From the NCBI RefSeq assembly GCF_013122565.1, contig NZ_CP053258.1: a stretch of 64,000 bases of DNA; one strand, given 5' to 3'. The DNA is from Escherichia coli. Lineage in GTDB: Bacteria > Pseudomonadota > Gammaproteobacteria > Enterobacterales > Enterobacteriaceae. A program made the translations under genes and the position numbers. Below, piece after piece: positions 2,613 through 38,899 of this stretch. Position 1 is the stretch's first letter. Each line of letters starts with the position of its first letter. A model generated the notes under the pieces. The model was given only the letters and a program-made list of their open reading frames with translations. It did not search any database and was not told the DNA's origin.

Positions 2613-2658
2613 TTAAGAATAATACTCTCATGTTTGAATAATTACTCTGTTTATTATC

Positions 2659-2687: not shown

Positions 2688-2692
2688 TTCAA

Positions 2693-2800: not shown

Positions 2801-2809
2801 GTAAAAAGC

Positions 2810-11716: not shown

Positions 11717-11775
11717 TAATTTCGTAAATGCCGCGTGCAAACGTGGCATCCGTGCGCCAGAATTTGTACAATGAA

Positions 11776-11819
11776 GCGCCCCCGGACGAGCAGCCGCTCA
11801 CCGGGGCGTTTCTTTTTTC
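11776..11819 (+). terminator. Intrinsic terminator downstream of ndk
   Basis: gcgcccccgg...ccggggcg hairpin followed by TTTCTTTTTT. Confidence 0.6.
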
Positions 11820-11865
11820 AACCCTCCAGGGGCCATAACGTGTAATAACGAGGCCGGAATAGCAT

Positions 11866-13020: not shown

Positions 13021-13024
13021 TAGC

Positions 13025-13066
13025 CATTACGCCACGGTTACTTTATGTACCGTGGCGTAATGTTTT
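13025..13066 (+). terminator. Hairpin terminator after rlmN
   Basis: 13-bp perfect stem cattacgccacggt/accgtggcgtaatg followed by GTTTTAT. Confidence 0.5.
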
Positions 13067-13304
13067 ATGAATGAAGTATTAAGTTGCAATTGTCTGGTCA
13101 ATATTAACGGTGCGTTTTTGCTGACTTTAAGGCAGTATGTAACGATGCAACAGTAAGTTAGCCTTAGTGAATGTGGGCTTTGTCACGAGCACACAGACGG
13201 TCTTATACTGTATGATAACGGTTAACTTAACGGATGTTTCGCGGTGTGGGTGAGCATGATGGTTCACCGGCATCTCAATTCTCATTTAAACGTACCTGCA
13301 GCGA

Positions 13305-14318: not shown

Positions 14319-14344
14319 CAGACGGGTAACGCGGGAGATTTTTC

Positions 14345-15463: not shown

Positions 15464-15573
15464 TAACGTGATGGGAAGCGCCTCGCTTCCCGTGTATGAT
15501 TGAACCCGCATGGCTCCCGAAACATTGAGGGAAGCGTTGAGGGTTCATTTTTATATTCAGAAAGAGAATAAAC

Positions 15574-16863: not shown

Positions 16864-16880
16864 GGAAGGAGAAGGACAGC

Positions 16881-17501
16881 GTGGAAATTTACGAGAACGA
16901 AAACGACCAGGTTGAAGCGGTTAAACGCTTTTTTGCTGAAAATGGCAAAGCACTGGCTGTTGGGGTGATTTTGGGCGTTGGCGCACTGATTGGCTGGCGC
17001 TACTGGAACAGCCATCAGGTTGATTCTGCACGCTCCGCTTCTCTTGCCTATCAAAATGCGATTACCGCAGTGAGCGAAGGCAAACCGGATAGTATCCCGG
17101 CGGCGGAAAAATTTGCTGCTGAAAATAAAAATACCTATGGTGCGCTGGCTTCTTTGGAACTTGCGCAGCAATTTGTTGACAAAAATGAACTAGAGAAAGC
17201 TGCCGCCCAGTTACAACAGGGGCTGGCAGACACGAGCGATGAAAATCTCAAAGCCGTGATAAATCTGCGTCTTGCTCGCGTTCAGATACAGCTCAAGCAG
17301 GCTGATGCCGCGCTGAAAACCCTTGATACCATCAAAGGTGAAGGGTGGGCTGCCATTGTTGCCGACCTGCGTGGTGAAGCATTGCTGAGCAAAGGTGATA
17401 AGCAAGGTGCGCGTAGTGCATGGGAAGCAGGCGTGAAAAGCGATGTTACTCCGGCACTGAGCGAAATGATGCAGATGAAAATTAATAATTTGTCCATCTG
17501 A
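16881..17501 (+). CDS. yfgM: TPR-like inner-membrane protein YfgM
   Basis: 206 aa, GTG start, MEIYENENDQ... Confidence 0.9.
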   Translation: MEIYENENDQVEAVKRFFAENGKALAVGVILGVGALIGWRYWNSHQVDSARSASLAYQNAITAVSEGKPDSIPAAEKFAAENKNTYGALASLELAQQFVDKNELEKAAAQLQQGLADTSDENLKAVINLRLARVQIQLKQADAALKTLDTIKGEGWAAIVADLRGEALLSKGDKQGARSAWEAGVKSDVTPALSEMMQMKINNLSI

Positions 17502-18807: not shown

Positions 18808-20280
18808 ATGGTACCTGTGGTCGCGCTTGTCGGGCGCCCTAACGTAGGAAAATCCACGTTATTTAACCGTCTAACTCGCACCCGAGATGCGCTGGTTGCG
18901 GATTTCCCGGGTCTGACTCGTGACCGTAAGTACGGTCGTGCGGAAATTGAAGGCCGTGAGTTTATCTGTATTGATACCGGCGGGATTGATGGTACAGAAG
19001 ACGGTGTAGAAACCCGCATGGCGGAACAGTCGCTGCTGGCGATTGAAGAAGCGGACGTCGTACTGTTTATGGTGGATGCGCGCGCGGGCCTGATGCCGGC
19101 AGATGAAGCGATTGCCAAACATCTGCGCTCCCGTGAAAAACCGACCTTCCTGGTGGCAAACAAAACTGACGGTCTGGATCCCGATCAGGCAGTGGTTGAT
19201 TTCTACTCGCTTGGTTTAGGTGAAATCTACCCGATCGCCGCGTCTCACGGTCGTGGCGTATTAAGTCTGCTGGAGCATGTGCTACTGCCGTGGATGGAAG
19301 ATCTCGCACCGCAAGAGGAAGTCGACGAAGACGCTGAATACTGGGCGCAATTTGAAGCGGAAGAGAACGGCGAAGAAGAAGAGGAAGACGACTTCGACCC
19401 GCAAAGTCTGCCGATCAAACTGGCGATTGTGGGTCGTCCGAACGTAGGTAAGTCTACACTCACTAACCGTATTCTTGGTGAAGAGCGCGTTGTTGTTTAT
19501 GACATGCCTGGTACGACGCGTGACAGTATCTACATTCCAATGGAACGCGATGGACGTGAGTATGTGCTCATTGACACCGCTGGCGTACGTAAACGCGGTA
19601 AAATCACCGATGCTGTAGAGAAATTCTCCGTAATCAAAACGTTGCAGGCCATTGAAGATGCCAACGTGGTGATGTTGGTGATTGATGCGCGCGAAGGTAT
19701 TTCCGATCAGGATCTCTCCCTGCTGGGCTTTATTCTCAATAGTGGGCGCTCACTTGTCATTGTGGTGAATAAGTGGGATGGCCTGAGCCAGGAAGTGAAA
19801 GAGCAGGTGAAAGAAACGCTGGACTTCCGTCTGGGCTTTATCGATTTTGCTCGTGTGCACTTTATCTCTGCCTTGCACGGCAGTGGTGTTGGTAACTTGT
19901 TTGAATCAGTACGTGAAGCGTATGACAGCTCCACCCGTCGTGTGGGGACCTCTATGCTGACGCGCATCATGACGATGGCTGTTGAAGATCACCAACCGCC
20001 GCTGGTACGCGGTCGTCGTGTGAAGCTGAAATATGCACACGCCGGTGGTTATAATCCGCCGATTGTGGTGATTCACGGTAACCAGGTGAAAGACCTGCCT
20101 GATTCCTACAAGCGTTACTTGATGAACTACTTCCGCAAATCGCTGGACGTAATGGGATCGCCGATTCGTATTCAGTTCAAAGAAGGGGAAAACCCGTATG
20201 CGAACAAGCGTAACACCCTGACGCCAACCCAGATGCGTAAACGTAAGCGCCTGATGAAGCACATCAAGAAAAGTAAGTAA
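18808..20280 (+). CDS. der: Double-domain ribosome-assembly GTPase Der (EngA)
   Basis: 490 aa from ATG at 18808 with GAGG SD (track ORF starts earlier); two GRPNVGKS P-loops. Confidence 0.95.
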
Positions 20281-20342
20281 TTACTTATCTGGTTTCCCTT
20301 TTCTCATGGAGAGGGAAACCGAATAACACGCGAGGAGTATTG

Positions 20343-20558
20343 ATGGAATTCAATTGCCCAACCTGCCATAAACCTCTCGAACATCACGGCGAGACGGCTC
20401 ATTGCGTAACTTGCGACAAAGATTTCACCATCCAGGCACTTTGCCCTGACTGCCATCAGCCGCTACAGGTGTTAAAGGCTTGTGGCGCTGTGGACTATTT
20501 CTGCCAACATGGCCACGGATTAATTTCTAAAAAACGCGTTGAGTTTATTATTGCTTAA
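20343..20558 (+). CDS. yfgJ: Zinc-ribbon protein YfgJ
   Basis: 71 aa from ATG at 20343 with GAGGAG SD; CxxC...CxxC pairs. Confidence 0.85.
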   Translation: MEFNCPTCHKPLEHHGETAHCVTCDKDFTIQALCPDCHQPLQVLKACGAVDYFCQHGHGLISKKRVEFIIA

Positions 20559-20575
20559 TATCATCTGAATGTATG

Positions 20576-20610
20576 GTTTTATCATTTGTATTTAATATAT
20601 AAATGATAAA
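20576..20610. promoter_or_regulatory. Perfect 10-bp inverted repeat in AT-rich region upstream of sinH
   Basis: tttatcattt-N13-aaatgataaa. Confidence 0.3.
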
Positions 20611-20767
20611 GCCATCTCTTATTGGTTAAATCACTAGTACATGTGAGTGAAATCATTTTGATAAATTTTTAGGAATATATTTAGTTTTTCTGACGTGCCT
20701 TCCTGAATGTTCTGGCATAGAATATTAGAGCTTATTCATCAAATTATCATTGCCACAGGGAAAGTGC

Positions 20768-22942
20768 ATGCTGCGATGGAGTCGCTTTATAATGTTACTA
20801 TTTATCTCTGCTGCAACTCCTGCGGCAGAGATAAATAGTAAGCAAAATGAATCGTTACCTGATTTAGGCAGCCAGGCGGCTCAACAAGTAGAACAAACGG
20901 ATAAGGGTAAATCGTTAAAAGAGCGTGGAGCCGATTACGTCATCGATTCTGCTACGCAAGGGTTCGAAAACCTGACCCCCGAGGCGCTGGAATCTCAGGC
21001 CAGAAGCTATCTGCAAAGTCAAATCACCTCAACCGCGCAATCTTATATTGAAGAGACACTCTCTCCCTACGGTAAGGTCCGTTCGAATCTCTCTATTGGT
21101 CAAGGTGGCGATCTGGATGGTAGCTCCATCGATTATTTTGTTCCCTGGTATGATAATCAAACGACCGTTTATTTCAGTCAATTTTCTGCGCAACGAAAAG
21201 AGGACCGTACGATCGGGAATATCGGAATTGGAGCAAGACATAATTTCGATGAATGGCTTTTGGGTGGAAATATATTTTACGATTATGATTTCACCCGTGG
21301 GCATCGACGTTTAGGTTTGGGGACAGAGGCCTGGACCAATTATTTAAAATTTTCTGGCAACTATTATCATCCGCTCTCTGACTGGAAAGACTCTGAAGAT
21401 TTCGACTTTTATGAAGAGCGCCCTGCGCGCGGTTGGGATATTCGCGCTGAAGCCTGGTTACCTTCTTATCCGCAACTGGGGGGCAAAATTGTCTTCGAGC
21501 AATATTACGGTGATGAAGTCGCCCTTTTTGGTACGGATAATTTAGAGAAAGATCCCTATGCGGTGACGCTAGGACTGAATTATCAACCGGTACCGTTACT
21601 GACAGTTGGAACGGATTATAAAGCGGGGACAGGAGATAACAGCGATGTCAGCATTAATGCCACTCTTAATTATCAATTCGGCGTTCCGCTAAAAGATCAA
21701 CTCGACAGCAATAAAGTAAAAGCAGCCCACTCGTTGATGGGCAGTCGCCATGATTTTGTCGAGCGTAATAACTTTATCGTCCTGGAATATAAAGAGAAAG
21801 ACCCTCTGGATGTGACGTTGTGGCTGAAAGCGGATGCGACCAACGAGCACCCTGAGTGCGTCATTAAGGACACTCCAGAAGCGGCGATCGGGCTGGAAAA
21901 ATGTAAGTGGACCATTAACGCACTGATCAATCACCACTACAAAATTGTCGCTGCGTCATGGCAGGCGAAAAACAATGCCGCCCGCACGCTGGTGATGCCG
22001 GTCATCAAAGAAAATACCATCACTGAAGGCAACAACAACCACTGGAATCTGATACTGCCAGCCTGGCAGTACAGCTCTGACAAAGCCGAGCAGGAAAAAC
22101 TCAACACCTGGCGGGTACGGCTGGCGCTGGAAGATGAAAAGGGTAATCGGCAAAACTCCGGCCTGGTTGAGATCACCGTTCAGCAGGACCGTAAAATTGA
22201 GCTGACCGTCAATAACATTGCTGATGTGCCTGATGAGAATAACCACAGCCATGAAGCCAGCGCTCAGGCGGATGGCGTTGATGGTGTGGTCATGGACCTC
22301 GAGGTGACGGACAGTTTTGGCGATAACACGGACCGCAACGGTGATGCTCTGCCAGAAGATAATCTTGCACCGCAGCTCTACGACGCTCAGGACAAAAAAG
22401 TCACGCTAACCAATAAACCCTGCTCGACCGACAACCCCTGCGTGTTTATTGCCAAACAAGATAAAGAAAAGGGAACGGTAACCCTCTCCAGTACATTGCC
22501 AGGCGTTTTCCGCTGGAAAGCGAAAGCGGCTCCCTACGATGACAGTAACTATGTGGATGTCACGTTTATTGGATCTGATATCGGCGGGCTTAATGCTTTC
22601 ATTTACCGGCTTGGGGGAGCGAAGCCAGTCAATTTGATCGGCAATGATAAAGACCCCCTGCCGCTGGGCAACACGTACCGATTTGTGTTGTGGCGTGATG
22701 CCAACAAAGACGGCGTTTTTCAGCAGTCGGAAAAACTAACCGATGAAGAGATGACTCAGTACGACTACAAGTGGGAATTTACCGGCAAGAGCATCAATGG
22801 CGAAGTAGGTGCGCAGGCGAACACATCCAATGCAGACATTGTAATACCGGCGACCAACCGTGAAGCGGCGCAATCCTATGGTGCAAAAGTGGAAGATGGC
22901 TTGCAGGGTTACGGTTTACGCGTGCTGTACACCAAAAAATAA
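20768..22942 (+). CDS. sinH: Inverse autotransporter adhesin, intimin/invasin family (SinH-like)
   Basis: 724 aa from ATG at 20768 with AGGGA SD (track starts at 20750); signal peptide; N-terminal beta-barrel-like region; C-terminal passenger; gene absent at this site in K-12. Confidence 0.8.
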   Translation: MLRWSRFIMLLFISAATPAAEINSKQNESLPDLGSQAAQQVEQTDKGKSLKERGADYVIDSATQGFENLTPEALESQARSYLQSQITSTAQSYIEETLSPYGKVRSNLSIGQGGDLDGSSIDYFVPWYDNQTTVYFSQFSAQRKEDRTIGNIGIGARHNFDEWLLGGNIFYDYDFTRGHRRLGLGTEAWTNYLKFSGNYYHPLSDWKDSEDFDFYEERPARGWDIRAEAWLPSYPQLGGKIVFEQYYGDEVALFGTDNLEKDPYAVTLGLNYQPVPLLTVGTDYKAGTGDNSDVSINATLNYQFGVPLKDQLDSNKVKAAHSLMGSRHDFVERNNFIVLEYKEKDPLDVTLWLKADATNEHPECVIKDTPEAAIGLEKCKWTINALINHHYKIVAASWQAKNNAARTLVMPVIKENTITEGNNNHWNLILPAWQYSSDKAEQEKLNTWRVRLALEDEKGNRQNSGLVEITVQQDRKIELTVNNIADVPDENNHSHEASAQADGVDGVVMDLEVTDSFGDNTDRNGDALPEDNLAPQLYDAQDKKVTLTNKPCSTDNPCVFIAKQDKEKGTVTLSSTLPGVFRWKAKAAPYDDSNYVDVTFIGSDIGGLNAFIYRLGGAKPVNLIGNDKDPLPLGNTYRFVLWRDANKDGVFQQSEKLTDEEMTQYDYKWEFTGKSINGEVGAQANTSNADIVIPATNREAAQSYGAKVEDGLQGYGLRVLYTKK

Positions 22943-22996: not shown

Positions 22997-23974
22997 ATGA
23001 AGCAGGACAAAAGACGCGGTCTGACCCGGATCGCATTGGCGCTGGCACTGGCTGGTTACTGCGTGACGCCCCTGGCGCTGGCGGAAGACAGCGCGTGGAT
23101 CGACAGCGGCGAGACCAATATTTTCCAGGGGACTATTCCGTGGCTCTACCCCGTTGATGAAGATGAGGTAACTGGCGCGGGTCGGGTGACGTTAACCTCT
23201 GACTATAAAGGTACTCGTCCGTCGGGAAGTACATCCGACAAGCGTATGTACTCTGGCGACAAATTAACGCTCAGTTGGGTGATTGGCGATACTGAAGGCG
23301 ACGTCGATCTTGGTACGGCGGGTAAAGATGCAAAAACCATCGACACCATCCGCTGGATGAGCTACAAGGACGCCCAGGGTGGCGATCCGAAAGAGCTGGC
23401 AACAAAGGTGACCACTTACACCCTTACCGATGCCGACCGTGGTCGTTATATCGGTATTGAAATTACCCCAACCACCCAGACGGGTACGCCATACGTTGGG
23501 ACTGCGCTGCATCTTTATGATGTTTCGAATGCTAACGGCGGGGGAAGCGATAAAGATAACGTTGATCCAGGACCGGTAGTTAACCAGAACCTGAAAGTCG
23601 CCATCTTTGTTAAAGACACCTCGACTAACCTCATTAACGGTAGTACGCCAATCCAGTTGGGCAAAACGTACGTCGCCAAACTGTACTCGGATGAGAACAA
23701 AAACGGTCAGTATGACGCAGGTACTGACGTTGATGTTACCGCCAATTACGACTTCCGTTGGGTTCTTTCTGACACCAGCGATCAGCTCGGTACGGGGGGC
23801 GGCATTGTTAACTCAAGCTTCGATAATCAAAACCTGGTCATCCCTGCGACCAACGACGAAGCCAGAACCAACCTTAACGGCCCTGCTCGTGATGGCAAAG
23901 ATGCCCTTGCGATCCCGACCAACGGCGATGGGGTTCAGGGTTACAAACTGCAGATTATCTACAAACACAAATAA
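22997..23974 (+). CDS. sinI: Secreted protein homologous to the C-terminal domain of SinH (SinI-like)
   Basis: 325 aa; signal peptide; last ~80 aa align with the SinH C-terminus (...VIPATN.EA...GVQGY.L...Y.K). Confidence 0.75.
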   Translation: MKQDKRRGLTRIALALALAGYCVTPLALAEDSAWIDSGETNIFQGTIPWLYPVDEDEVTGAGRVTLTSDYKGTRPSGSTSDKRMYSGDKLTLSWVIGDTEGDVDLGTAGKDAKTIDTIRWMSYKDAQGGDPKELATKVTTYTLTDADRGRYIGIEITPTTQTGTPYVGTALHLYDVSNANGGGSDKDNVDPGPVVNQNLKVAIFVKDTSTNLINGSTPIQLGKTYVAKLYSDENKNGQYDAGTDVDVTANYDFRWVLSDTSDQLGTGGGIVNSSFDNQNLVIPATNDEARTNLNGPARDGKDALAIPTNGDGVQGYKLQIIYKHK

Positions 23975-24094: not shown

Positions 24095-27000
24095 ATGTCC
24101 CAGCCCCTGAAACCCGGCACTTTTTATGTTCTGCTTGTATTGCTGCTAACCGCAATGCTGCCGGGATGGTCATGGGCGGGCTCATCATGGCAAGACTCAT
24201 CCGATACGGCGGGTGAATTTAACGGTACCGTCCCCAATGCCGACAGCGCCAGTATGCCGGTTTATCAGGGCAGTATTTGGCTTGATCCTGCAAAGCCCCA
24301 TGATGTTTCGTTTTCCGCTAAACCCAATGAATTTAGCGTTAATCTGGATGTGTCGAAGCTGATTGTGACGAACCCGCAGGACCTGGAAGGCGATGTGTTT
24401 ACCAACCCGCGTTGGGAAAACCAAACGCCGCCAGTGGTCTCTTTAGTCTGGGCGGATGCGGCGACACCGGAAACCCCACTTAATCCTCAGCCAGTGGCTG
24501 GGCGTTCCTTTTGTGCGCAAGGGCTTGCCGGGCGTTCGCTGGTTGTCTGGCCGCAGCCAGACCCACAGCAGACCATGCCGCAGCTTTATCTACGCACCTC
24601 GACAGGTTATCCCTATGAAAGTCTTCTGACGCTTGTCGATAAGAAAGTGACGTTAAATATTGCACCGGCCCAGGGCGACTTAATTTCTGTCAGCGCGGCC
24701 GGTTATGACGACACCGTGGGCGGGGCGAAAACTACCGTTGGCGGCAATATCACGTTGACCGTTACCACCAAAGACTGCAGCGGTAACGTTGCCGGAAATA
24801 TTCCTTTTATTATCAAACGCAAAGATGCTGAAAACCGACAGGGCGCAGTCAACAATGCTTCGCCGGTTGTTCTGGACAAAACTGAACTGACCACTATCGC
24901 GACCGAATATCACAGCACCACGGATGCGAACGGCGTTGCGACGATCACGGTCACGCAACCCAACGGCCCTGGTGTAAAAACGCCGCTGGTAGCCAGTCTT
25001 TCAGGTATTGGTCAAACCAGTGAAACGGCAGTGATCTTTACCGTCCTTACCAGCCCGGATGTCCCTCAAGCCATGATGTGGGGCCATATGCCCGATACGC
25101 TAAAGGCCCATGATTATACGTTCAGTCGGCCAAAACTGGCGGCGGAGGTCGATAACGAAAATGGTACCGTTAACGATCACAATGAAACCTGGTCTACCTT
25201 CACCTGGAATGGTGCGGATAAACATTGCGACATTTTGCCTGGTATGCGCCAGTTTGGCGCGTTGGCAACGGTGGTGCCCACGACAGTTCAGGATCTCGTT
25301 GGTTGGCCGATACAGGGTAACTACTACTGGTCATCACTGGCGGGGATGACCGGACAGCACCATGCGGCGGATGTTTCCAACCGTAGCGAAGCGCAAAAAC
25401 CGGACGATACGACGTTTATTGTCAGTTGTGTCGATAAAGACGCTCCTGACGTTGAACCGAAACTGGTGCTAACACCGGGAAGCTATGATTCGACGTTAAA
25501 GGCGATGAAAGTAAAGGTGGGGGAAGAAGCGTCTCTGCGTGTAACCATCACCGATAATAAAAACAATAATCAACCGCTGGCGTATTACTACTTTTCGTTA
25601 CATCTGGATGACGGCATCAACCGTAAAAATCAATCGGATGCGGCATGGGAAGCGCATCCGGTGCAGATAGCGGGTGGCAGCAATGTCCATCAGGTTGACG
25701 CGCATACCTATGAAGGCATTACGGATGTGAACGGTCAGGCATCACTGACGCTAACGCAACCGGGCGGCGCGGGCGTGAAAACACACATTACTGCGAAAAT
25801 GCGCAGCGACTTCACCACGTCGGATGAGAAAGACGTGATTTTTACAGTCATTACCAGCCCCGATACTGACAAAGCCCGGATGTGGGGGCATATGCAGGGT
25901 ATTATTGATTCTAATAATATCTTTAAACGTCCACGGCTGGCAGATGAAACCGACCATGAACTCGATTCAGTGCGAGAGAACAACGAAGACTGGGCGCTGT
26001 TCGACCAAAATGGCAGCATGCAGGCTGAATGTGGTGTAGGTCATATTCCGAGCCAGAATCAATTACAGGGTCTGTTCACGGCGCATCCTGGCAATGCGAT
26101 TGGCACCGAATATGGCTGGCCGACGGCGCAAAAAGATTACCTTAGTGCGGTACAACAAGAGCCACACTCCTCCGTGAACCTGGGCACAGGTAACATCGAC
26201 ACCTATTCAGGCTTTAAGCAGAACTATCTCTCCTGTTCCGGTAATGAGATGGTTGCTCAGATTACCGCAACGACCGATCATGACGTTTCCGTGGGTAGCA
26301 GGGCGCAGGCTAAAGTTGGAGAAACCGTCACCATGACGGTGCATACCTTCAATGCACTGAATAATGCGCCCGTGCCGTTTACCGCCTTCAGCATCACAAA
26401 GGAGATGGGTAAAAACCGTCAGGGGCAGACTACCGGATATACCGATCCGACGAGTGGCGCAATTGAGATGAATGGCAAGCTCTACGGAACATCCCAGGCC
26501 TCGGTGGTTTATTCCGGGACTACGGATGCACAGGGCTACGCAACGGTGGAGATTGAACAACCGCAGGGCGTGGGCTTAGCGACGCCGCTAAATATTGCGC
26601 CTGTGAACTCCTACATTCCCAATACAGTAAATTACAACGTGATTTTCACCACGCCTACCAGCCCGGATGCGGTGGCGGCGCAGATGTGGGGGCATATGGA
26701 TGAGACTATTACAGTCGATTCTTTAACCTTCACCCGGCCTAAACTGGCAGCGGAAGTTTCCAGCCCGGATGCGACATTGACAGAAAATAATGAAGTCTGG
26801 GCGCGTGTGAGTCAGGCGAATACATCCAGTATAAGTAAAGGTGGCTGCGGAGCGAATATGCTGCCGCGTCGATCCCAGCTTAGCGCGCTCTATGATGCCA
26901 ATAACGGTAATGCTGTACAGACAGTACACGGCTGGCCAACTCTGCGTGAGCCTTACTGGAGTAGTTCCCCTGCGGATAAAGTTCCTCATTTTTACACCAT

Positions 27001-30000
27001 TGCTCTCAATGATGGCGCACAGGCTATTGGCGGTAGCAACGCGGTTTATGTCAGCTGCCTGACGACGGCAAATAATCCTGCAAACGCTATTACTTTAGAG
27101 GTGGTGGATCAGGCGCAATGGAACGCGACGGCGAAAGCGGCGAAGCTGAAAAAAGGCGAAACGCTCCAGGTTAAGGTAACGGTGAAGGATGCTCAGGGCA
27201 ATGCACTGTCGGATATGCCATTCACCCTGAAACGTGGCGATGGTTATACTCGCTCAAATGAAAAACATATTGCTGGCAGCGGGGATGCGCTGGTTGCGCC
27301 AGTCATCGTCAACGGTGGCCTGACGGATGAGACTTCACTGAATGACACCGCGACAGCATACGCTACCATGACCGGCAGCGACGGCACTAAAATACTTACC
27401 ATAACCCGCCCTGAGACGCATGGCACCAAAACGGCGCTGATCGCTGCGCTGTATTCTGATGCAACGAAAAACGCCAGCCTCGACACCATTTTTACCGTTG
27501 CGACCAGCCCGGACAGCGATAAGGCGAAAATGTGGGGGCACATGGCGGAAACGGTGACGGCTACTGACGGCACGGTATTTAAACGCCCGCGCTTACTGAA
27601 AGAGTGGTCAACTCAGTCCTCTCTTACTGAAGATAATGAGGTCTGGGGGTTGTATAACATCAGCGATGCAAAATCTACCAGCAATGGCTGTGGCGCTAAT
27701 TATGTTCCTGCGCAGGTTGGGCTGGAGTCACTGTTTGACAATAACCGCAGCAACGCGATGAAAACCGTACAAGGTTGGCCGGTAGATACCCATTATCTTT
27801 CAAATACCTCAAGTACCGACAGTTTATCGCAGCATAATTACAAAGCCGTGGATCTGGGCAATGGTACCAGTACCTCAATATCCGCTTCCGAGAGGAAGTT
27901 GTTAACCTGCCAGACGACCGCGGTGTTACAGGCAAGCCAGATTCTGCTGGACGCAGCGGATCCAACCACCTTCGACAGCACAAATAATGTTGTCAAAGTT
28001 AAAAAAGGCGAAGCGGCAGTGGTGCGTGTAACCACGAAGGATTCGCAGGGGAATCCTGTAGGAAATACCGCATTTACCCTCAAACGAAACCACAGCGTGA
28101 ACAGGGCTAATGCGTCGAATACCACGTCGATTGCTTCACTGGTGGTAACGGATGCATGGGGAAATACTCAGGACAGTTTTCTTTCAACGTCCCTGGTCAT
28201 ATATGGCGTAACGGGGGCCGATGGCACCACCACCTTTACACTGAAACAAGACCAGTCTACCGGCTTAAAAACGGAACTCACGGCAGCGCTGGACTCCTCC
28301 AGCAGCATTACATCGTCGCTTCCCGTCGTCTTTACGGTGCTTACCAGCCCGGATTCGCCAAAAGCCAAATTCTGGGGGCATATGGCTGAAACGGCGACAG
28401 GCGATGACGGTCTCATTTATAAAAGACCATTGCTGAGAGACGAGATTAGCGCCTCTAGCGGTATCAGCACCCTGACAGAAGAGGGGGAAAACTGGTCTGC
28501 ATTCTGGGCGAACAATGCTAATGATACTTCGATAAGTGGTTGTGGCGCAGAGTATGTTCCCTCTGCCGATGAACTTAAGGCCATTTATGCGCACCAGGGG
28601 GGGAGCGCATTGCATGGTGCTATTGGCTGGCCAGTTTCGAAGCCCTATATCTCGAATACCGTCGCAGATATGTTCACTCAACCCTTTAAGTTTGATGTCG
28701 TTTCGCTGAAGACAGGAGATGAAACACAGATTTCATCAGGTAGTGGTGTAGGGCCTCTGAGTTGCCGGACCACACCTGTCGCCGTTGCCAGTCAGATCAT
28801 TGTTGAGGCGAACGATGCGGCGCAATTTGTCAAAGTTGACGATACCTTGAGTGCACTGAAAGTGAAAAAAGGTGAAGACGCGGTGATTCGCGTGGTGACC
28901 AAGGATGCGCAGGGGAATACCGTGCCCAATGTTCCCTTTATTCTCAAGCGCGAGGGCTCGAGAAACCGTCAAAATGTCGAGATGATAAACAAATCGATTA
29001 CGGTGATTAACGCGGCAGGGACTTCTACGAATGTGCTTAGTTCGTCAACACTGCTTTATGGGGTAACGGGCGCGGACGGGACTACCACGTTTACAGTAAA
29101 ACAAGATGATTCTATGGGTCTGATGACCAATATGTACGCTCAGTTGTATCAGTCGACGATAGAATCCAACAAATTACCGGTGATGTTTACCGTTATAACC
29201 AGCCCGGATACGCCTCTGGCAAACTACTGGGGGCATATGTCTGAAACCTTCACGACAAGGTCGGGGGTTGTCTTCAAGCGGCCAATGCTTAGTGCCGAGC
29301 ATCCAGCGGGGCAGTCAACCGTGGATAATAATGAAACCTGGCTTTCCTTGAATACAGCAGCAAAAAATGATGTCAGCAAATCAGGCTGTGACGAACCTTA
29401 TCAACCGTTATTAAGCGAACTTCAGGAGTTGTACAGTGAACATCCTAATGGTGCGATAGGAACCGATTTAGGCCTGCCGCTGACGAAAACCTGGTGGGCT
29501 TACGATAAAGTGGCCAACTCGAATGCCTGGTACGATCAGTCTGTTAATTTGTCGAATGGGTCAAGCGCCAGGGCGTCGTCAACCACCGTGGCGTTTGTGC
29601 CCTGTCTGGTAAACCCTCATCCAGTGGCTGCTTCTATTGAGATAACCTCCACGGCACTGGATGCGGAGAAAACGGCCAGTAACGATGGTCGCCCCAGCGC
29701 AACCGCACCGAAAGGTACGGCGATCCGGATGACGGTGATTGTGCGGGATAGCGCAGGAAATCCATTGCCCGGCGCCAACTTTAACCTCGTACGCGGGACG
29801 GCATTGGATCGTGCAAAATACAGTGTCGATAGTTCAGCTGATGATCTTACTCTCGTGCCTGTCACGCCTGCTGGCGTAAATATGACTCTCACGAGTAATA
29901 CATCAAAAGCACTGTTGACGACAGGCAGTGATGGTAAAGTGACCTTTGATGTGACGCAAAACGGGACTTATGGGCTGGCAACCCCGCTCACTGCAACATT

Positions 30001-32149
30001 GCTACGCGACACTTCAATAAGCGCCACGATGGATGTCATTTTCACGGTGATAACCAGTCCCGACTCACCGAAAGCAAAATACTGGGGTCATATGCCCGAC
30101 ACGTTTACCAGCAGTGCGGGGGTGACCTTTAAACGGCCGCTACTGGCAGCCGAAGCGACCTCCGGGTCCTCGGTTGGCAGTAATAATGAGTCGTGGTCAT
30201 ACATTGGTATTAACGAAAGAGCTACGTCGGATTGCTCACTGGAGTATCAGCCGCGTCTTAATGAGTTACAGGGGTTATATAACGATCATCCTGGCGGGGC
30301 CATACAGACGGATCTGGGGTTACCTGTAGCTGCCGGAAGTGGAAACTGGTGGGCTTATGAAATGAGTATGCCTAACCCCAGCGGGTCGGTGTGGTTTTAC
30401 GGCATCATTAATTTGAAAACGGGACAATCGTCGACCACGTCGAGTGGATTCGCTTTAATGCTCTGCCTGACGCAGCCGCATACGGTACCGGCAAGCCTTA
30501 CACTGTCATCAACCGCCTACGATGAAGGCAGAACCGCCAGCAATGGTGGCACACCTACGTCATCTGTGAAAAAAGGTGAGACGCTTCCCTTAGTGGTGAC
30601 GATCAAAGATGCCAATGGTAACCCCGTTGGCGGCGAAGGCGTTACGCTCAAGCGCGCGCAGGCGAAAAGCCGTTCAGGTATCTCTGTCTCCCCCACTACC
30701 GCCGATGATCTTATTTTAAATGAAGTCACACCGGAATCAGCCAGCTTTTCCTTCGCCGCGGATTTGGCATCATGGAGCGGCATCACCGGCAGTGACGGCA
30801 CTGTAACGTTCAATATTACACAAAAAAATACAATCGGCCTGGTAACGCCGTTTACAGCCTCATTGGGGCGAAATCCGCAGGTCACCGCCAACCAGGACCT
30901 GATGTTCACGGTGGTAACCAGCCCGGATTCGCCGAAGGCAAACTACTGGGGGCATATGCCAGCAACCTTGACGGCAGTGAATGGTGCGGTATTTGAACGC
31001 CCGAAATTGTGGAGTGAACTGCCATCGACCTCCGGCGTCGGCAAGATCAATAACAATAATGAGGACTGGCCGTACTATTCACCGACAAAAAAATCTGATG
31101 AGAGTGTGACCCCTTGCGAAGTGGCAAGACAGCCTCTGCTTAGTGATTTAAATTCGCTGTCTGCGCGTTATCCGAATAACTCCTTCGCTGCTGAAACGGG
31201 CTGGTCTGTGTATTACACCTGGTGGGCAGAGGATAAATCCGCCGCGGGTAAAGATCAGTCGGTGGATTTGAGAGATGGCACGCTGTATACGTATGCATCA
31301 GGAGCATTTCAACCTTGCCTGGTTAACGCGCGTTCAACTGTTTCTAGCGTCACACTTACCTCAACGGCGTTTGACGCTACCACTCAGGCGGCGAAAGTGA
31401 AAAAAGGCGAAGCCATGCCGGTGACGGTCACGGTGAAAGACAGCGCCGGGAAAACGGTGCCGAATGTGGCTTTTACCCTGAAACGCGGTGATGCTGCGCC
31501 AAGAAACCCTGGTATGGCCTTGTACGGTGATGTGGATGCGATGGATGACCTGACCGTTCAACCGACATCGGGAGCGGCGGTGACGTGGTCTGAAAGTGGC
31601 AACTTGCTACAGGGGACCACTGGCTCTGACGGCACCGCGACGTTTATGATTAAACAGGATCATTCGCCGGGCTATAAAACCCCTTTGACGGTCACGTTGG
31701 ACAATAACACCAGCATCACTGCGACAATGGACGCTATTTTCACCGTCGTGACCAGCCCGAATGTCTCAAGCGCCTATTACTGGGGGCACATGGCAGATAC
31801 GACCACGGTGAACGGTAAAACACTGCATCGCCCGTTGTTGGCATCGGAGCTACCTGCGAATGCTTCTTCCCCAGCCACGCCTGACGTAAACAATGAAGCC
31901 TGGGCTATGGGGCATATGGTGGATTCAAGGAATTGGGATATCGAGGCGCAGTGTGGCAGCTTGACCAACGCGCCAAACGATGACGACTTAATGGGTCTGT
32001 ATACTAACTTTAGTTCGCTGGGTTGGCCTGCATCCCCGAGTTTTCCTTACTTATCTTCTCAGAGATGCGGCGTGTTTGAGAACAGTGGACAACAGGACTG
32101 CGCTATTGCGCCAGGCAACACAAAAGGTTTTGTGACTTGTACCCAATAA
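24095..32149 (+). CDS. ratA: Giant repetitive surface/secreted protein (RatA-like)
   Basis: 2684 aa; signal peptide; nine ~275-aa repeats each with F-T-V-x-T-S-P-D...W-G-H-M and two conserved cysteines. Confidence 0.85.
24990..31830 (+). repeat. Nine imperfect tandem coding repeats of ~810-860 bp inside ratA
   Basis: ccagcccggat...tgggggcatatg recurs near 25045, 25855, 26660, 27505, 28345, 29205, 30055, 30915, 31755. Confidence 0.85.
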
Positions 32150-32157
32150 GATGACCA

Positions 32158-33636
<1,479 letters not shown>

Positions 33637-33695
33637 TTATTCAGTCGATAGTAACCCGCCCTCCGGGGATAGCAAGCATTTTTTGCAAAAAGGGG

Positions 33696-33724
33696 TAGAT
33701 GCAATCGGTTACGCTCTGTATAAT
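33696..33724 (+). promoter_or_regulatory. Candidate guaBA promoter (-10 TATAAT at about 33719-33724, GC-rich discriminator)
   Basis: ctctgTATAATgccgcgg about 45 bp upstream of guaB ATG. Confidence 0.4.
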
Positions 33725-33767
33725 GCCGCGGCAATATTTATTAACCACTCTGGTCGAGATATTGCCC

Positions 33768-35234
33768 ATGCTACGTATCGCTAAAGATGCTCTGACGTTT
33801 GACGACGTTCTCCTCGTTCCTGCTCATTCTACCGTTCTGCCGAATACTGCTGACCTCAGCACCCAGCTGACGAAAACTATTCGTCTGAATATCCCTATGC
33901 TTTCCGCAGCAATGGATACCGTAACGGAAGCGCGCCTGGCTATTGCTCTGGCTCAGGAAGGCGGTATCGGCTTTATCCACAAAAACATGTCCATTGAACG
34001 CCAGGCAGAAGAAGTTCGCCGTGTGAAAAAACACGAATCTGGTGTGGTGACTGACCCGCAGACTGTTCTGCCAACCACGACGCTGCGCGAAGTGAAAGAA
34101 CTGACCGAGCGTAACGGCTTTGCGGGCTACCCGGTCGTTACCGAAGAAAACGAACTGGTGGGTATTATCACCGGTCGTGACGTACGTTTTGTGACCGACC
34201 TGAACCAGCCGGTTAGCGTTTACATGACGCCGAAAGAGCGTCTGGTCACCGTGCGTGAAGGTGAAGCCCGTGAAGTGGTGCTGGCAAAAATGCACGAAAA
34301 ACGCGTTGAAAAAGCGCTGGTGGTTGATGACGAATTCCACCTGATCGGCATGATCACAGTGAAAGATTTCCAGAAAGCGGAACGTAAACCGAACGCCTGT
34401 AAAGACGAGCAAGGCCGTCTGCGTGTTGGTGCAGCGGTTGGCGCAGGTGCGGGTAACGAAGAGCGTGTTGATGCGCTGGTTGCCGCAGGTGTTGACGTTC
34501 TGCTGATCGACTCCTCTCACGGTCACTCTGAAGGCGTTCTGCAGCGTATCCGTGAAACCCGTGCTAAATATCCTGATCTGCAAATCATCGGCGGCAACGT
34601 GGCAACAGCTGCAGGTGCACGCGCTCTGGCAGAAGCTGGTTGCAGCGCGGTTAAAGTCGGTATCGGCCCTGGCTCTATCTGTACGACTCGTATCGTGACT
34701 GGCGTAGGTGTTCCGCAGATCACTGCCGTTGCTGACGCAGTTGAAGCGCTGGAAGGCACAGGTATTCCGGTTATCGCAGATGGTGGTATTCGCTTCTCCG
34801 GCGACATCGCCAAAGCTATCGCCGCTGGCGCAAGCGCGGTAATGGTGGGTTCCATGCTGGCGGGTACTGAAGAATCTCCGGGTGAAATTGAACTCTACCA
34901 GGGCCGTTCTTACAAATCTTACCGTGGTATGGGCTCTCTGGGTGCGATGTCCAAAGGTTCTTCTGACCGTTACTTCCAGAGTGACAACGCTGCCGACAAA
35001 CTGGTGCCGGAAGGTATCGAAGGTCGCGTAGCCTATAAAGGTCGCCTGAAAGAGATCATTCACCAGCAGATGGGCGGCCTGCGCTCCTGTATGGGCCTGA
35101 CCGGCTGTGGTACTATCGACGAACTGCGTACTAAAGCGGAGTTTGTACGTATCAGCGGTGCGGGCATTCAGGAAAGCCACGTTCACGACGTGACCATTAC
35201 TAAAGAGTCCCCGAACTACCGTCTGGGCTCCTGA
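33768..35234 (+). CDS. guaB: IMP dehydrogenase
   Basis: 488 aa from ATG at 33768 ([13 protein letters not shown]...); track ORF begins upstream; catalytic loop GPGSICTTR. Confidence 0.96.
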
Positions 35235-35241
35235 TTCTCTT

Positions 35242-35275
35242 CGCCCGACTTCATGTCGGGCGATTTATATTATCT
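35242..35275 (+). terminator. Hairpin between guaB and guaA (partial terminator/attenuator candidate)
   Basis: cgcccgacttcatgtcgggcg followed by AT-rich T-containing tract. Confidence 0.35.
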
Positions 35276-35302
35276 GTTTCACTTGCCTCGGAATAAGCGT
35301 CA

Positions 35303-36880
35303 ATGACGGAAAACATTCATAAGCATCGCATCCTCATTCTGGACTTCGGTTCCCAGTATACTCAACTGGTTGCGCGCCGCGTGCGTGAGCTGGGCGTTTA
35401 CTGCGAACTGTGGGCGTGGGATGTGACAGAAGCACAAATTCGTGACTTCAATCCAAGCGGCATTATTCTTTCCGGCGGCCCGGAAAGCACCACCGAAGAA
35501 AACAGCCCGCGTGCGCCGCAGTATGTCTTTGAAGCAGGCGTACCGGTATTCGGCGTTTGCTATGGCATGCAGACCATGGCAATGCAGTTGGGCGGTCACG
35601 TTGAAGCCTCTAACGAACGTGAATTTGGCTACGCGCAGGTTGAAGTCGTAAACGACAGCGCACTGGTTCGCGGTATCGAAGATGCGCTGACCGCAGACGG
35701 TAAACCGCTGCTCGATGTCTGGATGAGCCACGGCGATAAAGTTACCGCTATCCCGTCCGACTTCGTCACCGTAGCCAGCACCGAAAGCTGCCCGTTTGCC
35801 ATTATGGCTAACGAAGAAAAACGCTTCTATGGCGTACAGTTCCACCCGGAAGTGACTCACACCCGCCAGGGTATGCGCATGCTGGAGCGTTTTGTGCGTG
35901 ATATCTGCCAGTGTGAAGCCCTGTGGACGCCAGCGAAAATTATCGACGATGCTGTAGCTCGCATCCGCGAGCAGGTAGGCGACGATAAAGTCATCCTCGG
36001 CCTCTCTGGTGGCGTGGATTCCTCCGTAACCGCAATGCTGCTGCACCGCGCTATCGGTAAAAATCTGACTTGCGTATTCGTCGACAACGGCCTGCTGCGT
36101 CTCAACGAAGCAGAGCAGGTTCTGGATATGTTTGGCGATCACTTTGGTCTGAACATTGTTCACGTTCCGGCAGAAGATCGCTTCCTGTCAGCGCTGGCTG
36201 GCGAAAACGATCCGGAAGCAAAACGTAAAATCATCGGTCGCGTTTTCGTTGAAGTATTCGATGAAGAAGCGCTGAAACTGGAAGACGTGAAGTGGCTGGC
36301 ACAGGGCACCATCTACCCTGACGTTATCGAATCTGCGGCGTCTGCAACCGGTAAAGCACACGTCATCAAATCTCACCACAACGTGGGCGGCCTGCCGAAA
36401 GAGATGAAGATGGGCCTGGTTGAACCGCTGAAAGAGCTGTTCAAAGACGAAGTGCGTAAGATTGGTCTGGAGCTGGGCCTGCCGTACGACATGCTGTACC
36501 GTCATCCGTTCCCGGGACCAGGCCTTGGCGTTCGTGTTCTGGGTGAAGTGAAGAAAGAGTACTGTGACCTGCTGCGCCGTGCTGACGCCATCTTCATTGA
36601 AGAACTGCGTAAAGCGGACCTGTACGACAAAGTCAGCCAGGCGTTCACCGTCTTCCTGCCAGTACGTTCCGTTGGCGTAATGGGCGATGGTCGTAAGTAT
36701 GACTGGGTTGTCTCTCTGCGTGCTGTCGAAACCATCGACTTTATGACCGCACACTGGGCGCATCTGCCGTACGATTTCCTCGGTCGCGTTTCCAACCGCA
36801 TTATCAATGAAGTGAACGGTATTTCTCGCGTGGTGTATGACATCAGCGGCAAGCCGCCAGCTACCATTGAGTGGGAATGA
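35303..36880 (+). CDS. guaA: GMP synthase (glutamine-hydrolysing)
   Basis: 525 aa. Confidence 0.97.
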
Positions 36881-36972: not shown

Positions 36973-37512
36973 TTAATTAAACCAGCTGTCCGATTTGTTC
37001 TCTTCTGCTTTGCCCACGCTTTTCATCAGATCGCGACCGCCTTCAGTCATATTTCTGTTGGCGTCAGCTTCAGATTGCACCACATCGGTTTGCGCAGCTT
37101 TGTGCTTCAGTTCCTGATCGATAAATTCGTTTTCGCGCTTAACGCGGGCTTCTTCTTTCGCCAGCGCCAGTTTTTGTTTCTGAATCTCTAAGCTGCGTAG
37201 CTCATCTTCATAACTTTGATCGCGTTTTTTGTCCGCAGTGGCTTCGGCGTCCAGTTTATCCTGACGAGCTTTCTTATTTGCCGCTGCCGTTGCCGCTCTT
37301 TTGTTAGCGGCGGCCTGGGCATTTGCGCGACGTTGCTTCTCTTGCTGGATTTCCCTGTTGCGCTCCGCGACCCATTCGTCATGCTGCCTTTGCTCTTCAT
37401 TTTTACCTTGCTGTTCCGCTTCTGCGACAGCAGAGAGTTGATCCTGCAATGATGAGGCGATAGCCGGATAGCTTAAGGAGGCTAAGATGGCGCAAAGAAA
37501 AACTTTCTTCAT
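36973..37512 (-). CDS. yfgI: Periplasmic coiled-coil protein YfgI
   Basis: 179 aa; signal peptide; Lys/Glu/Ala/Gln-rich. Confidence 0.85.
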   Translation of the reverse strand: MKKVFLCAILASLSYPAIASSLQDQLSAVAEAEQQGKNEEQRQHDEWVAERNREIQQEKQRRANAQAAANKRAATAAANKKARQDKLDAEATADKKRDQSYEDELRSLEIQKQKLALAKEEARVKRENEFIDQELKHKAAQTDVVQSEADANRNMTEGGRDLMKSVGKAEENKSDSWFN

Positions 37513-37527
37513 GACTCCTCCTGATTA

Positions 37528-38046
37528 TTAGCTCTTTTCAGGACATTTGGTATTTGGCTGAATACGCGTTTCGTTATACGTCGTGGTAATAACAACGGCT
37601 AAACCTGTCGTAAACTGGCACTCTTTACCCACCTGGGTGGAGGTATACACTTTGGTGCCTTCCTTATACGTTAAAGAAACACCTTCCACTAAGGTTTTAT
37701 CATTCACCATAGAACCCGCTGCCGCGCCTACAGCTCCGCCGCCAACTGCACCTGCCGTCGTTCCGGAATTGCTGCCAGACCCGACGTTGTGGCCGATAAC
37801 ACCGCCAGCGACTGCGCCAATAAGCGCGCCGAAGGCTTGTGCGTTCCGTTTATTTTGGGAGTTGTCTACGGCAACTTTTGCGGGAAGAATGGAAATAATA
37901 TTAACGGTTTTAGTTTCTTGTTTGGTATTCAGTTGATCGGTTTGATAAACATCGGCGGCATGATCGTCAGCATTTGACTGGCATCCTGCCAGAGTGAATG
38001 ACGCTAACATTGCCACAGGCAGAAGACATTTTTTAAATTTCATCAC
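37528..38046 (-). CDS. yfgH: Outer-membrane lipoprotein with glycine-zipper region
   Basis: 172 aa; lipobox LAGC; GxxxG-rich segment. Confidence 0.85.
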   Translation of the reverse strand: MMKFKKCLLPVAMLASFTLAGCQSNADDHAADVYQTDQLNTKQETKTVNIISILPAKVAVDNSQNKRNAQAFGALIGAVAGGVIGHNVGSGSNSGTTAGAVGGGAVGAAAGSMVNDKTLVEGVSLTYKEGTKVYTSTQVGKECQFTTGLAVVITTTYNETRIQPNTKCPEKS

Positions 38047-38356
38047 TATTCCTTGTTATACACATTACGAAAAATAAGACATTTAAGATCATCAAAAGAG
38101 GAAAGTAAATGTATTGCGTATAAAGGGATAGATTAAATTTATTAAAATTCACTCGGGGAATAATTTATAAAAATACATCATTACAACATATATATTAATT
38201 TTATATTTATTTCGCAGCCAAACAGGATAAACATCAGTCAGGACAAAGACGTAAAACTTAAGATGGAAGAATATCTGCCGCTTTGATAATCCCAAAGAGC
38301 AAAAGCATCCGACAGCGAAGTGCCGTTATGTTCTGTGAAAGTGGAGAAGGTAACCG

Positions 38357-38548
38357 CTAACGTTGTACCGGTGATTCGACGGAGAGTGTGGATTGCTGAG
38401 CTTCTTTTTTGCTCTGATGGTGCTGCCAGGCACCGACGGACGAGTAGATAAAACGGCCAAAGAAGAAGATAAAGCTGATGAGCAGTACGATACGGGTCAT
38501 GCGACTGTTAAATCGGTGTCGTTTTCGCATACTGGTTGCCTGACTCAC
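38357..38548 (-). CDS. yfgG: Small membrane protein YfgG
   Basis: 63 aa; one hydrophobic helix. Confidence 0.7.
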   Translation of the reverse strand: MSQATSMRKRHRFNSRMTRIVLLISFIFFFGRFIYSSVGAWQHHQSKKEAQQSTLSVESPVQR

Positions 38549-38899
38549 AAAAGGTTCCTTGAAGTATGTCCCACGCTGTGGACGGTACTTACATTAAGGC
38601 ACAACAGGACAAAATGGTCAATTCTTCGTTATGTAAAAAAGCGTCAGCGGATACATATTTTAATGTTATGGAAGTTAATTTAATTATTTACAATGATGAT
38701 GTAATAATGATGAATTAACATGATAAACGTAATAATTCATTAATCAGGGTTATTTTGTTTGATATATATCAATTGGAACTTTCATATGACACTTAGAATC
38801 AATGCTCTCTATAGTGATGAATAATCATCATTCGAAGTCAGGTGGGATGCCTGTCTGAATACACCTCCTTCAGGATGTGGGGGATTCTGCTGAGCATCT

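Follow-up and report, generated by a model that had tools for sequence, protein, structure and literature searches.

The open reading frame at positions 24095–32149 of the plus strand of the window (the whole analysed stretch, 64,000 nucleotides of Escherichia coli DNA, contig NZ_CP053258.1) is the gene of the already catalogued E. coli RatA-like protein; its earlier description is correct and the object is an ordinary one. It is the third gene of the conserved sinH–sinI–ratA module ("ila", CS54-type) in the der–xseA interval. The identity and the domain architecture of the protein are practically certain. The explanation as a whole, comprising the RatA-like identity, this architecture, a staple disulfide, display aided by SinH and SinI and an occasional loss of modules, is considered probable, while the display of RatA in dependence on SinH, which is argued from analogy, has about even chances of being right. 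As to what RatA is, little new is added here, curated models already naming the protein. The points that could be sharpened are the cysteine-pair domain, which is predicted to have a C-type-lectin fold like that of InvE, intimin and invasin and which lacks a sugar-binding signature; the variation, which falls mainly on the distal lectin-fold domains and is accompanied by rare in-frame module losses; and an N-terminal motif common to SinI and RatA, which is a candidate export handle.

The NCBIfam equivalog NF011844 ("RatA-like protein") matches with 5225.5 bits against a cutoff of 3870 and from end to end, residues 5–2684 of the protein lying on positions 3–2683 of a model of 2683. The nearest database cluster, 98% identical, is named RatA-like protein (Escherichia coli). 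Both matches bear out the name given in the initial annotation. The gene is a single intact frame with an ATG start (2,684 aa plus stop), and it is the sole long open reading frame at 24095–32149. Among 5,426 complete E. coli genomes, 948 carry the gene, and in 925 of these carriers one aligned place spans at least 80% of it. At the DNA level the present allele differs by about 2.5% from its nearest counterpart among complete E. coli genomes.

By direct reading of the sequence, the protein begins with a Sec-type signal peptide (aa 1–28, 24095–24178; this and all following features are on the plus strand) with a putative cleavage site before G and with no lipobox cysteine. It is followed by a family-specific N-terminal domain of about 167 aa (aa 29–195, 24179–24679). 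The first Ig-like BIg21 domain occupies aa 196–319 (24680–25051; Pfam BIg21 at aa 217–318, E = 1.2e-26), its FTVLT end standing ahead of the first SPD...WGHM landmark. Nine modules of about 275 aa marked by this landmark had been claimed initially, and the pattern SP[DN]x5-8WGHM does match nine times, starting at aa 320, 588, 856, 1138, 1418, 1703, 1988, 2276 and 2554, with 268–288 aa between successive starts. The proposed alternation of Big-type and lectin-like segments is likewise found by HMM domain search, in which nine BIg21 domains (PF05688, E values 1e-19 to 1e-27) take turns with nine InvE_AD domains (PF05689, E values 1e-21 to 1e-33, counting domains not split by a query boundary).

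According to motif, cysteines and Pfam, each of modules 1–8 consists of a C-type-lectin-like InvE_AD domain (AD) and a subsequent BIg21 domain. Module 1 covers aa 320–587 (25052–25855; Cys378/Cys445), module 2 aa 588–855 (25856–26659; Cys646/Cys714), module 3 aa 856–1137 (26660–27505; Cys918/Cys988) and module 4, used for the structure model, aa 1138–1417 (27506–28345; Cys1199/Cys1272). Module 5 extends over aa 1418–1702 (28346–29200; Cys1483/Cys1557), module 6 over aa 1703–1987 (29201–30055; Cys1765/Cys1837), module 7 over aa 1988–2275 (30056–30919; Cys2047/Cys2124) and module 8 over aa 2276–2553 (30920–31753; Cys2341/Cys2408). The protein ends with a shorter AD (aa 2554–2684, 31754–32146), which matches positions 1–105 of the 136 of the Pfam InvE_AD model with E = 1e-21.

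The repeats are genuine at the protein level, but they are old. Modules are 25–48% identical to each other in protein and 40–52% in codon-aligned DNA. Tandem Repeats Finder detected no repeats between 23 and 33 kb with a longest period of 500, which is below the unit of about 830 bp, and self-BLASTN of ratA gave only patches of 60–120 nt with 67–83% identity. The longest exact word common to modules is the 22-nt GGCAAACTACTGGGGGCATATG, found in frame at 29218–29239 (ORF position 5124), where it encodes a portion of the SPD...WGHM boundary that belongs to module 6, and again at the corresponding offset of module 8 (30937–30958, ORF position 6843). An ordinary long-homology DNA repeat was rejected, the units being too diverged and the self-BLASTN patches too short.

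The imperfect DNA repeats of about 830 bp had been seen in the initial annotation as a substrate for recombinational length variation. The variation itself is real: relatives have 7, 8, 9 or 11 modules, the nine-module form strongly predominating, and some of the variants stem from records whose contigs measure 4.8–5.1 Mb. The substrate does not hold, since modules with 40–52% identity in DNA are far too diverged for ordinary homologous recombination. About 30 distinct in-register junctions were mapped among the module-number variants, and every natural deletion in ratA preserves both frame and register. Several junctions are found no more than a residue or two away from in-frame exact repeats of 14–20 nt in the two allele groups studied. 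The longest repeats of this kind (14–22 nt) stand at the same module offsets, for the only reason that the SPD...WGHM and KKGE motifs are conserved. Module number changes by occasional in-frame loss, and one lineage has gained two modules.

Each of modules 1–8 contains exactly two cysteines, 67–77 residues apart, in agreement with the conserved pair at about 70–80 residues noted earlier; the short ninth unit at the C-terminus has four. Among internal modules of homologues, 803 of 833 have exactly two cysteines. In an alignment of 40 ADs from five genera both cysteine columns are invariant, with a spacing of 67–84 residues, as are W10, G11, R27, P28, E33, E45 and W47. From this invariance the two cysteines are inferred to form a disulfide. 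It would be a staple made in the periplasm; intimin and invasin possess such a disulfide. Structure predictions for one repeat module and for the AD alone both reached a pLDDT of about 90, and the AD model alone resembles intimin, invasin, TvpA, Mtd, FGE-like proteins and many animal C-type lectins. As modelled, the AD adopts the CTLD fold of the InvE/intimin/invasin type.

The term "lectin-like" is apt for the predicted fold only. If the nine domains were true carbohydrate-binding lectins, RatA would be a multivalent glycan-binding array, a reading which is improbable. The signature EPN/QPD/WND is missing among the invariant AD residues; EPN and WND occur nowhere in the protein, and the sole QPD, at aa 154, lies in the N-terminal domain outside any AD. 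The canonical-lectin reading of the ADs was rejected on these grounds. Moreover, the nearest structural relatives, InvE, intimin and invasin, have protein-binding CTLDs, which bind their partners without Ca2+. The distal lectin-fold domains of RatA would contact host ligands, and these are probably proteins rather than sugars.

Divergence between allele groups is distributed unevenly along the protein. The part from the N-terminal domain to BIg3 is 70–91% identical, the part from AD4 to AD9 only 44–85%. AD5, AD6, AD8 and AD9 are the most variable domains, and the terminal AD9 has 56–61% identity. The architecture, cysteine pairs and motifs are kept across alleles that are only 60–80% identical and across genera. 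The distal variation and the module losses are relevant to antigen design and to typing based on short-read assemblies.

The N-terminal domain was found only in Rat-like proteins. Pfam gave no match for it, either with the single sequence or with 10 members of its alignment, and a PDB profile search returned nothing below E = 1. Among 1.84 billion proteins it was represented by only 40 clusters; the ten named ones among those looked up all belong to Enterobacterales, and full-length matches have the domain at the N-terminus. Directly after the signal peptide RatA and SinI have a motif in common, of the form sWQ-x5-TGxIxGTxP, which lies at aa 31–47 of RatA (24185–24235) and was located by hhalign and a pattern scan. 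The hhalign comparison of the RatA N-domain profile with that of SinI, weak on its own, aligned only 23 columns (E = 0.001, probability 21%). Scanned against six-frame translations totalling 529k residues, the strict pattern turned up at SinI-like and RatA-like N-termini and nowhere else. In the present RatA allele the motif is one residue longer, a form that the strict pattern overlooks and a relaxed one detects. A Buttiauxella cargo protein without BIg21 or AD keeps the N-domain and the motif.

Upstream of ratA lie sinH (iatB; 20750–22942), which encodes an intimin-like inverse autotransporter (NF033423 inverse_SinH, 1465 bits against a cutoff of 999), and sinI (22997–23974), which encodes a barrel-less partner of 325 aa (NF040711 partner_SinI, 321.9 bits against a cutoff of 165). 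The listed sinH frame begins with TTG, its first Met being codon 7, and E. coli relatives annotate this neighbour as sinH. The C-terminal ~100 aa of SinI resemble the C-terminus of SinH (positions 625–730 of the SinH model match). SinI shows a weak match to the ZirU family (E = 1.5e-4), and among the 120 matches listed in its profile search only SinI-family proteins appear. The order der–sinH–sinI–ratA–xseA, also flanked by guaBA, recurs in four annotated E. coli genomes and in Salmonella. A barrel gene, a SinI-like gene and a gene with the Rat N-domain occur together in E. coli, Salmonella, Citrobacter, Atlantibacter and Buttiauxella, at three chromosomal sites. Of the products of the ila island, RatA is the largest by a wide margin. 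Extraintestinal pathogenic E. coli are enriched for this island, and its SinH is being studied as a vaccine antigen (PMC9937491, PMC12525524).

This gene context bears on type 1 secretion. As an enterobacterial giant with tandem Ig-like repeats, RatA recalls the adhesins SiiE, BapA and LapA; however, it carries an N-terminal Sec signal peptide, its C-terminus is a Cys-rich lectin-fold domain rather than a T1SS signal, and its neighbours are sinH, sinI and xseA, with no adjacent genes for an ABC transporter, a membrane-fusion protein or a TolC-like protein. The signal peptide and the context effectively refute such a route, which is left with almost no probability.

Very improbable, too, is the reading of ratA as a silent or decaying remnant of a horizontally acquired island, with no functional protein made from it in E. 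coli. Pseudogenised cases exist: strain LHM10-1 has an internal stop in sinH with sinI and ratA intact, and in strain MFDS1019527 ratA is frameshifted. The GC content of sinH is low, and scans for promoters and terminators gave counts close to shuffle expectation (10 against 12.9 and 17 against 12.2), with no convincing promoter upstream and no support for an operon. However, the 8-kb frame is intact here and covered to at least 80% in nearly all carriers, the natural deletions keep frame and register, and the architecture, cysteine pairs and motifs have outlasted the divergence between alleles and genera. For the ila cluster, PMC12928451 cites deletion phenotypes in mouse urinary tract infection.

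In the preferred reading, RatA behaves as an inverse-autotransporter passenger would, except that its barrel is encoded by a separate gene. Its composition, Ig-like domains with a C-terminal CTLD, fits such a passenger, and a barrel-less Ig-domain protein encoded directly downstream of a barrel gene, as in the ZirT/ZirS layout, is present in five genera. The co-encoded barrel protein SinH and SinI would help to export RatA or to retain it at the surface, by analogy with ZirT/ZirS. By analogy with invasin it would form a rod of about 19 domains, roughly 60–70 nm long, the N-terminus being cell-proximal and the C-terminal lectin-fold domains distal. Rat-like proteins have been proposed as substrates of the co-encoded inverse autotransporter (Heinz 2016, PMC4943183), and the same ZirTSU analogy has been drawn for IatB/SinH (Goh 2019, PMC6714894). 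The passage of a folded, disulfide-bonded chain of 2,684 aa through an inverse-autotransporter barrel is mechanistically awkward, the lumen of such barrels being blocked by even one helix (Heinz 2016, PMC4943183). The intact sinI and ratA beside the sinH pseudogene of LHM10-1 suggest that RatA may not strictly need SinH. Against the reading also stands that Salmonella ratA itself is reported to have given no colonisation phenotype. No secretion experiment on RatA was found.

A more specific version, put forward tentatively and rated as doubtful, is a type Ve two-partner-like system in which SinH recognises two substrates, RatA and SinI, by a common N-terminal signal. The signal would be sWQ-x5-TGxIxGTxP after the signal peptide, to which RatA would add its N-domain; the TGxIxGTxP motif could then be the handle for SinH-dependent export. 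The Buttiauxella system, in which motif and N-domain are retained with an exchanged cargo, speaks for this version; the N-domain would then be a portable handle for export or docking. A small inverse-autotransporter barrel would thereby display in trans a disulfide-containing passenger of 2,684 aa and 19 domains.

Release of RatA as a soluble protein, as ZirS is released by ZirT, is unlikely. RatA would in that case exert its effect away from the cell rather than as an adhesin anchored to it, for instance as a decoy, a component of the matrix or biofilm, or an antivirulence factor. The zirTSU-type gene order and the ZirU-family match of SinI speak for release, as do the precedent of ZirT/ZirS (PMC4943183) and the lack of a membrane anchor, a lipobox and a barrel in RatA. 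On the other side, the conserved N-domain and the motif common with SinI suggest a docking handle, and the concentration of allelic divergence at the C-terminal end is more in keeping with a rod anchored at one end than with a free protein; neither argument is decisive.

The closest known system is the E. coli RatA-like protein of NF011844/PRK15316, with its end-to-end match above cutoff. The Salmonella CS54-island models fall below cutoff, RatA (NF011843) with 2067 against 3700 and RatB (NF011842) with 2256 against 4079, while the Salmonella Rat proteins and E. coli RatA have in common the N-terminal domain and the BIg21/InvE_AD alternation. A Salmonella protein from this locus contains 6 modules (1,893 aa), compared with 9 here. 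In ZirT/ZirS/ZirU of Salmonella the barrel gene likewise comes first and is followed by barrel-less proteins of a secreted type, and SinI adds its weak likeness to ZirU; RatA, however, exceeds ZirS and ZirU about tenfold in size.

The Pfam InvE_AD domain derives from InvE of Yersinia pseudotuberculosis (PDB 5n40), which ends in a BIg21 and InvE_AD pair. InvE is a true inverse autotransporter carrying its own barrel, and in its solved fragment the AD is a single C-terminal domain, whereas RatA repeats the pair nine times and has no barrel: IAT_beta (PF11924) is absent from it, with no Pfam match in aa 1–216, and the barrel is on the separate SinH. Unlike intimin and invasin (type Ve), the RatA polypeptide thus bears neither IAT_beta nor LysM, its Ig domains are of the BIg21 rather than the Big_1 type, and its lectin-fold domains are internal and repeated instead of terminal only.

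The ratA gene (window 24095-32149, plus strand) is an uninterrupted ORF that starts with ATG and encodes 2,684 aa. Its product, labelled RatA-like in the initial annotation, is matched end to end and above cutoff by the NCBIfam equivalog NF011844 "RatA-like protein" (5225.5 bits against 3870; model length 2,683), and it falls short of the cutoff of either Salmonella model, RatA or RatB. The nearest database cluster, 98% identical and with 243 members, bears the name RatA-like protein [Escherichia coli]. Since Pfam models exist for its domains, a homologous domain pair has been solved and literature is available, RatA belongs to an already known, curated and named protein family, and the earlier reading, both observation and interpretation, holds with qualifications. 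The gene is carried by 948 of 5,426 complete E. coli genomes, chromosomally in every case, and the best identity of the present allele to any complete genome is 97.5%. The core genes xseA-guaB-guaA (window 32230-36880) reach no more than 97.7% identity with any of the 5,426 genomes, so the window comes from a somewhat divergent Escherichia lineage.

A pattern search for SP[DN]x5-8WGHM located nine landmarks in RatA, at aa 320, 588, 856, 1138, 1418, 1703, 1988, 2276 and 2554, with a spacing of 268-288 aa. This repetition far exceeds chance, and nine landmarks in one intact ORF bear out the description of a giant protein of nine modules. The modules can be aligned end to end, yet their pairwise residue identity is only 25-48%. 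Exactly two Cys, 67-77 residues apart, are present in each of modules 1-8, in agreement with the conserved pair reported at about 70-80 residues. Pfam searches revealed nine BIg21 domains (PF05688, formerly DUF824) strictly alternating with nine InvE_AD "adhesion domains" (AD; PF05689, formerly DUF823), with E-values of 1e-19 to 1e-33 for domains unsplit by the query boundary. The protein is thus laid out as a signal peptide, an N-terminal domain (aa 29-195) and nine BIg21-AD units, the final AD being shortened and containing four Cys. The N-terminal domain had no Pfam match, and a search of 1.84 billion proteins found it in just 40 cluster representatives. Of these, the 10 named ones looked up all belong to Enterobacterales, and the domain is N-terminal in the full-length ones.

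The sole solved relative found by sequence is 5n40, a C-terminal fragment of Yersinia pseudotuberculosis InvE, which spans both RatA domain types (AD match E 4e-15). The AD has a C-type-lectin fold, as judged by its matches to InvE (18.4 in the fold comparison), intimin (8.1), invasin, TvpA and an FGE paralogue (7.6 each), mannose-receptor CRD4 (6.9) and Mtd (6.3). The proposed alternation of Big-type and lectin-like modules was recovered in this way, the term "lectin-like" being appropriate for the fold and not for a sugar-binding signature: EPN and WND are absent throughout the RatA sequence, and the sole QPD lies outside the ADs. Like intimin and invasin, the ADs are lectin-like by fold and are not demonstrably lectins.

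Both AD Cys are invariant in 40/40 aligned ADs, and 803 of the 833 internal homologue modules contain exactly this pair; its obvious reading is a putative staple disulfide. A natural exception is AD2 of strain 2012C-4221 (7718-8116 of its locus), where Tyr replaces the first Cys (QAEYGLGH) and an unpaired Cys is left. Outside the repeats, Cys140 of the N-terminal domain and Cys228 of the first BIg21 are kept in all Escherichia alleles inspected, and Cys140 also in most distant N-terminal domains; a disulfide between the two domains is possible.

The initial annotation regarded the DNA repeats of about 830 bp as a substrate for recombination. This was not confirmed: the modules are 40-52% identical in DNA, TRF reported no tandem repeats over them, self-BLASTN of ratA gave only patches of 60-120 nt with 67-83% identity, and the longest exact word common to modules is 22 nt. 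The module DNA is no classical recombination substrate. Module number does differ among strains, as had been anticipated: the 120 nearest homologues, which come from E. coli or E. albertii in every case with a named source, include forms with 7, 8, 9 and 11 modules. Nine modules are the modal form, found in all large clusters (4,065, 2,091, 2,071 and 1,510 members); the full-length variants comprise 8-module and 7-module forms and one 11-module form.

When each variant was aligned to its closest nine-module allele, about 30 distinct deletions were mapped, nearly all exactly in register, from a given offset in one module to the same offset in another. Their junctions concentrate at the FTV.TSPD...WGHM boundary, and the rest lie at GWP, ALMLCL and KKGE. 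When the window allele was examined together with representatives from two further allele groups, all intragenic exact repeats of at least 14 nt were in frame, and nearly all occupied equal offsets of two modules. Several lie within 1-2 residues of junctions seen in variants of the same allele group: a 20-nt repeat (module 4, offset 9, and module 6, offset 9) corresponds to the deletion in homologues P0075/P0076, a 17-nt repeat (module 4, offset 280, and module 6, offset 281) to that in P0085/P0086, and a 15-nt repeat (module 4, offset 168, and module 5, offset 171) to that in P0045. Collapse of repeats during assembly could also yield shortened forms. This is unlikely, since such repeats would be shorter than customary assembly k-mers and several of the variants come from records with 4.8-5.1 Mb contigs or from many contigs. 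The conclusion drawn is that module number changes by in-frame, short-homology events, the DNA identities involved existing solely through conserved protein motifs. The 11-module form has an extra pair that shares just 51-54% identity with modules 5 and 6 of the same protein and is therefore an old or imported duplication. Length variation of RatA is genuine but uncommon.

Between allele groups, the region from the N-terminal domain through the third BIg21 is 70-91% identical and AD4-AD9 are 44-85% identical, the lectin-fold domains being least conserved. Identity in the three most distant groups and in nearer ones is 44-55% and 77% for AD5, 50-61% and 84-86% for AD6, and 50-65% and 83-95% for AD8; for AD9 it is 56-61%. 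The P0002 allele is an evident mosaic. This polarity of divergence suggests a rod with its N-terminus near the cell and the C-terminal lectin-fold domains toward the host.

The genes sinH (NF033423, inverse autotransporter) and sinI (NF040711) lie 5' of ratA, and the island, flanked by der and xseA-guaBA, has the same gene order in annotated E. coli genomes and Salmonella. It is known in the literature as CS54-like or "ila"; sinH and sinI are described there as co-transcribed, and mouse UTI phenotypes are cited for cluster deletions (PMC12928451). In every neighbourhood visible, ratA is preceded by an IAT_beta barrel gene (730-760 aa) and a SinI-like gene (about 295-333 aa), and the trio occurs at three chromosomal sites in E. 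coli, Salmonella, Citrobacter, Atlantibacter and Buttiauxella. The third protein of Buttiauxella differs in retaining the RatA N-terminal domain without BIg21/AD repeats. Island decay was seen in LHM10-1, where sinH has an internal stop (2674-4848 of the locus) and sinI and ratA are intact, and in MFDS1019527, where ratA is frameshifted (8909-17006). LHM10-1 also has a tyrosine recombinase after guaA. Leminorella (locus 1-10232) contains two tandem Rat-like genes, of 3,008 aa (extending past the locus end) and 743 aa, the latter with two modules only and, judged by locus tags, with a SinI homologue two genes upstream. An AT-rich intergenic hairpin of 19 pairs (window 20573-20615, plus strand) lies 5' of sinH, whose 5' region (20000-22000) has a GC content of 44-46% versus about 52% in the flanks and ratA.

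Elsewhere in the window, three full-length ryfA sRNA copies (949-2613, minus strand; 314-324 bits, Rfam) are interleaved in tandem with two IS128 RNA copies. A 1,653-aa ORF (3862-8823, plus strand) matched no NCBIfam family at E<=1e-10 and is directly followed by a 770-aa ORF. Within 37000-41143, a low-GC stretch after guaA (37% at 38-39 kb) contains no ORF of at least 200 aa; beyond it lies a 747-aa EAL-type c-di-GMP phosphodiesterase-like ORF scoring far under every NCBIfam cutoff.

The remaining interest of RatA lies in its putative export route and in an N-terminal motif common with SinI. RatA has a Sec-type signal peptide and neither a lipobox nor a barrel. Immediately after the signal peptide, SinI and RatA have a common short motif, sWQ...TGxIxGTxP, noted in the window (sinI 23114-23140; ratA 24185-24235) and at four further loci; the Salmonella versions are WQSVSESTGTIQGTVP (SinI) and WQEVATATGAINGTPP (RatA). 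In hhalign the motif stretch alone was aligned between the two proteins, weakly (E 0.001, probability 21%). The strict motif was absent elsewhere when the window and ten loci were translated in six frames (529k residues). A relaxed form was found in 106/117 SinI-family N-termini and 110/173 RatA-family proteins, the misses being mostly one-residue variants and a few N-terminally incomplete sequences, and the motif is retained in the distant Buttiauxella pair. It is possibly a common export or docking signal. Published work (PMC4943183, PMC6714894) draws an analogy with ZirT/ZirS and proposes that the co-encoded inverse autotransporter takes Rat-like proteins as substrates. Together with these proposals, the best-supported mechanism would make RatA a passenger-like adhesin that lacks a barrel and is exported or docked via SinH and SinI; LHM10-1, with its sinH pseudogene and intact ratA, argues for caution as to SinH dependence.
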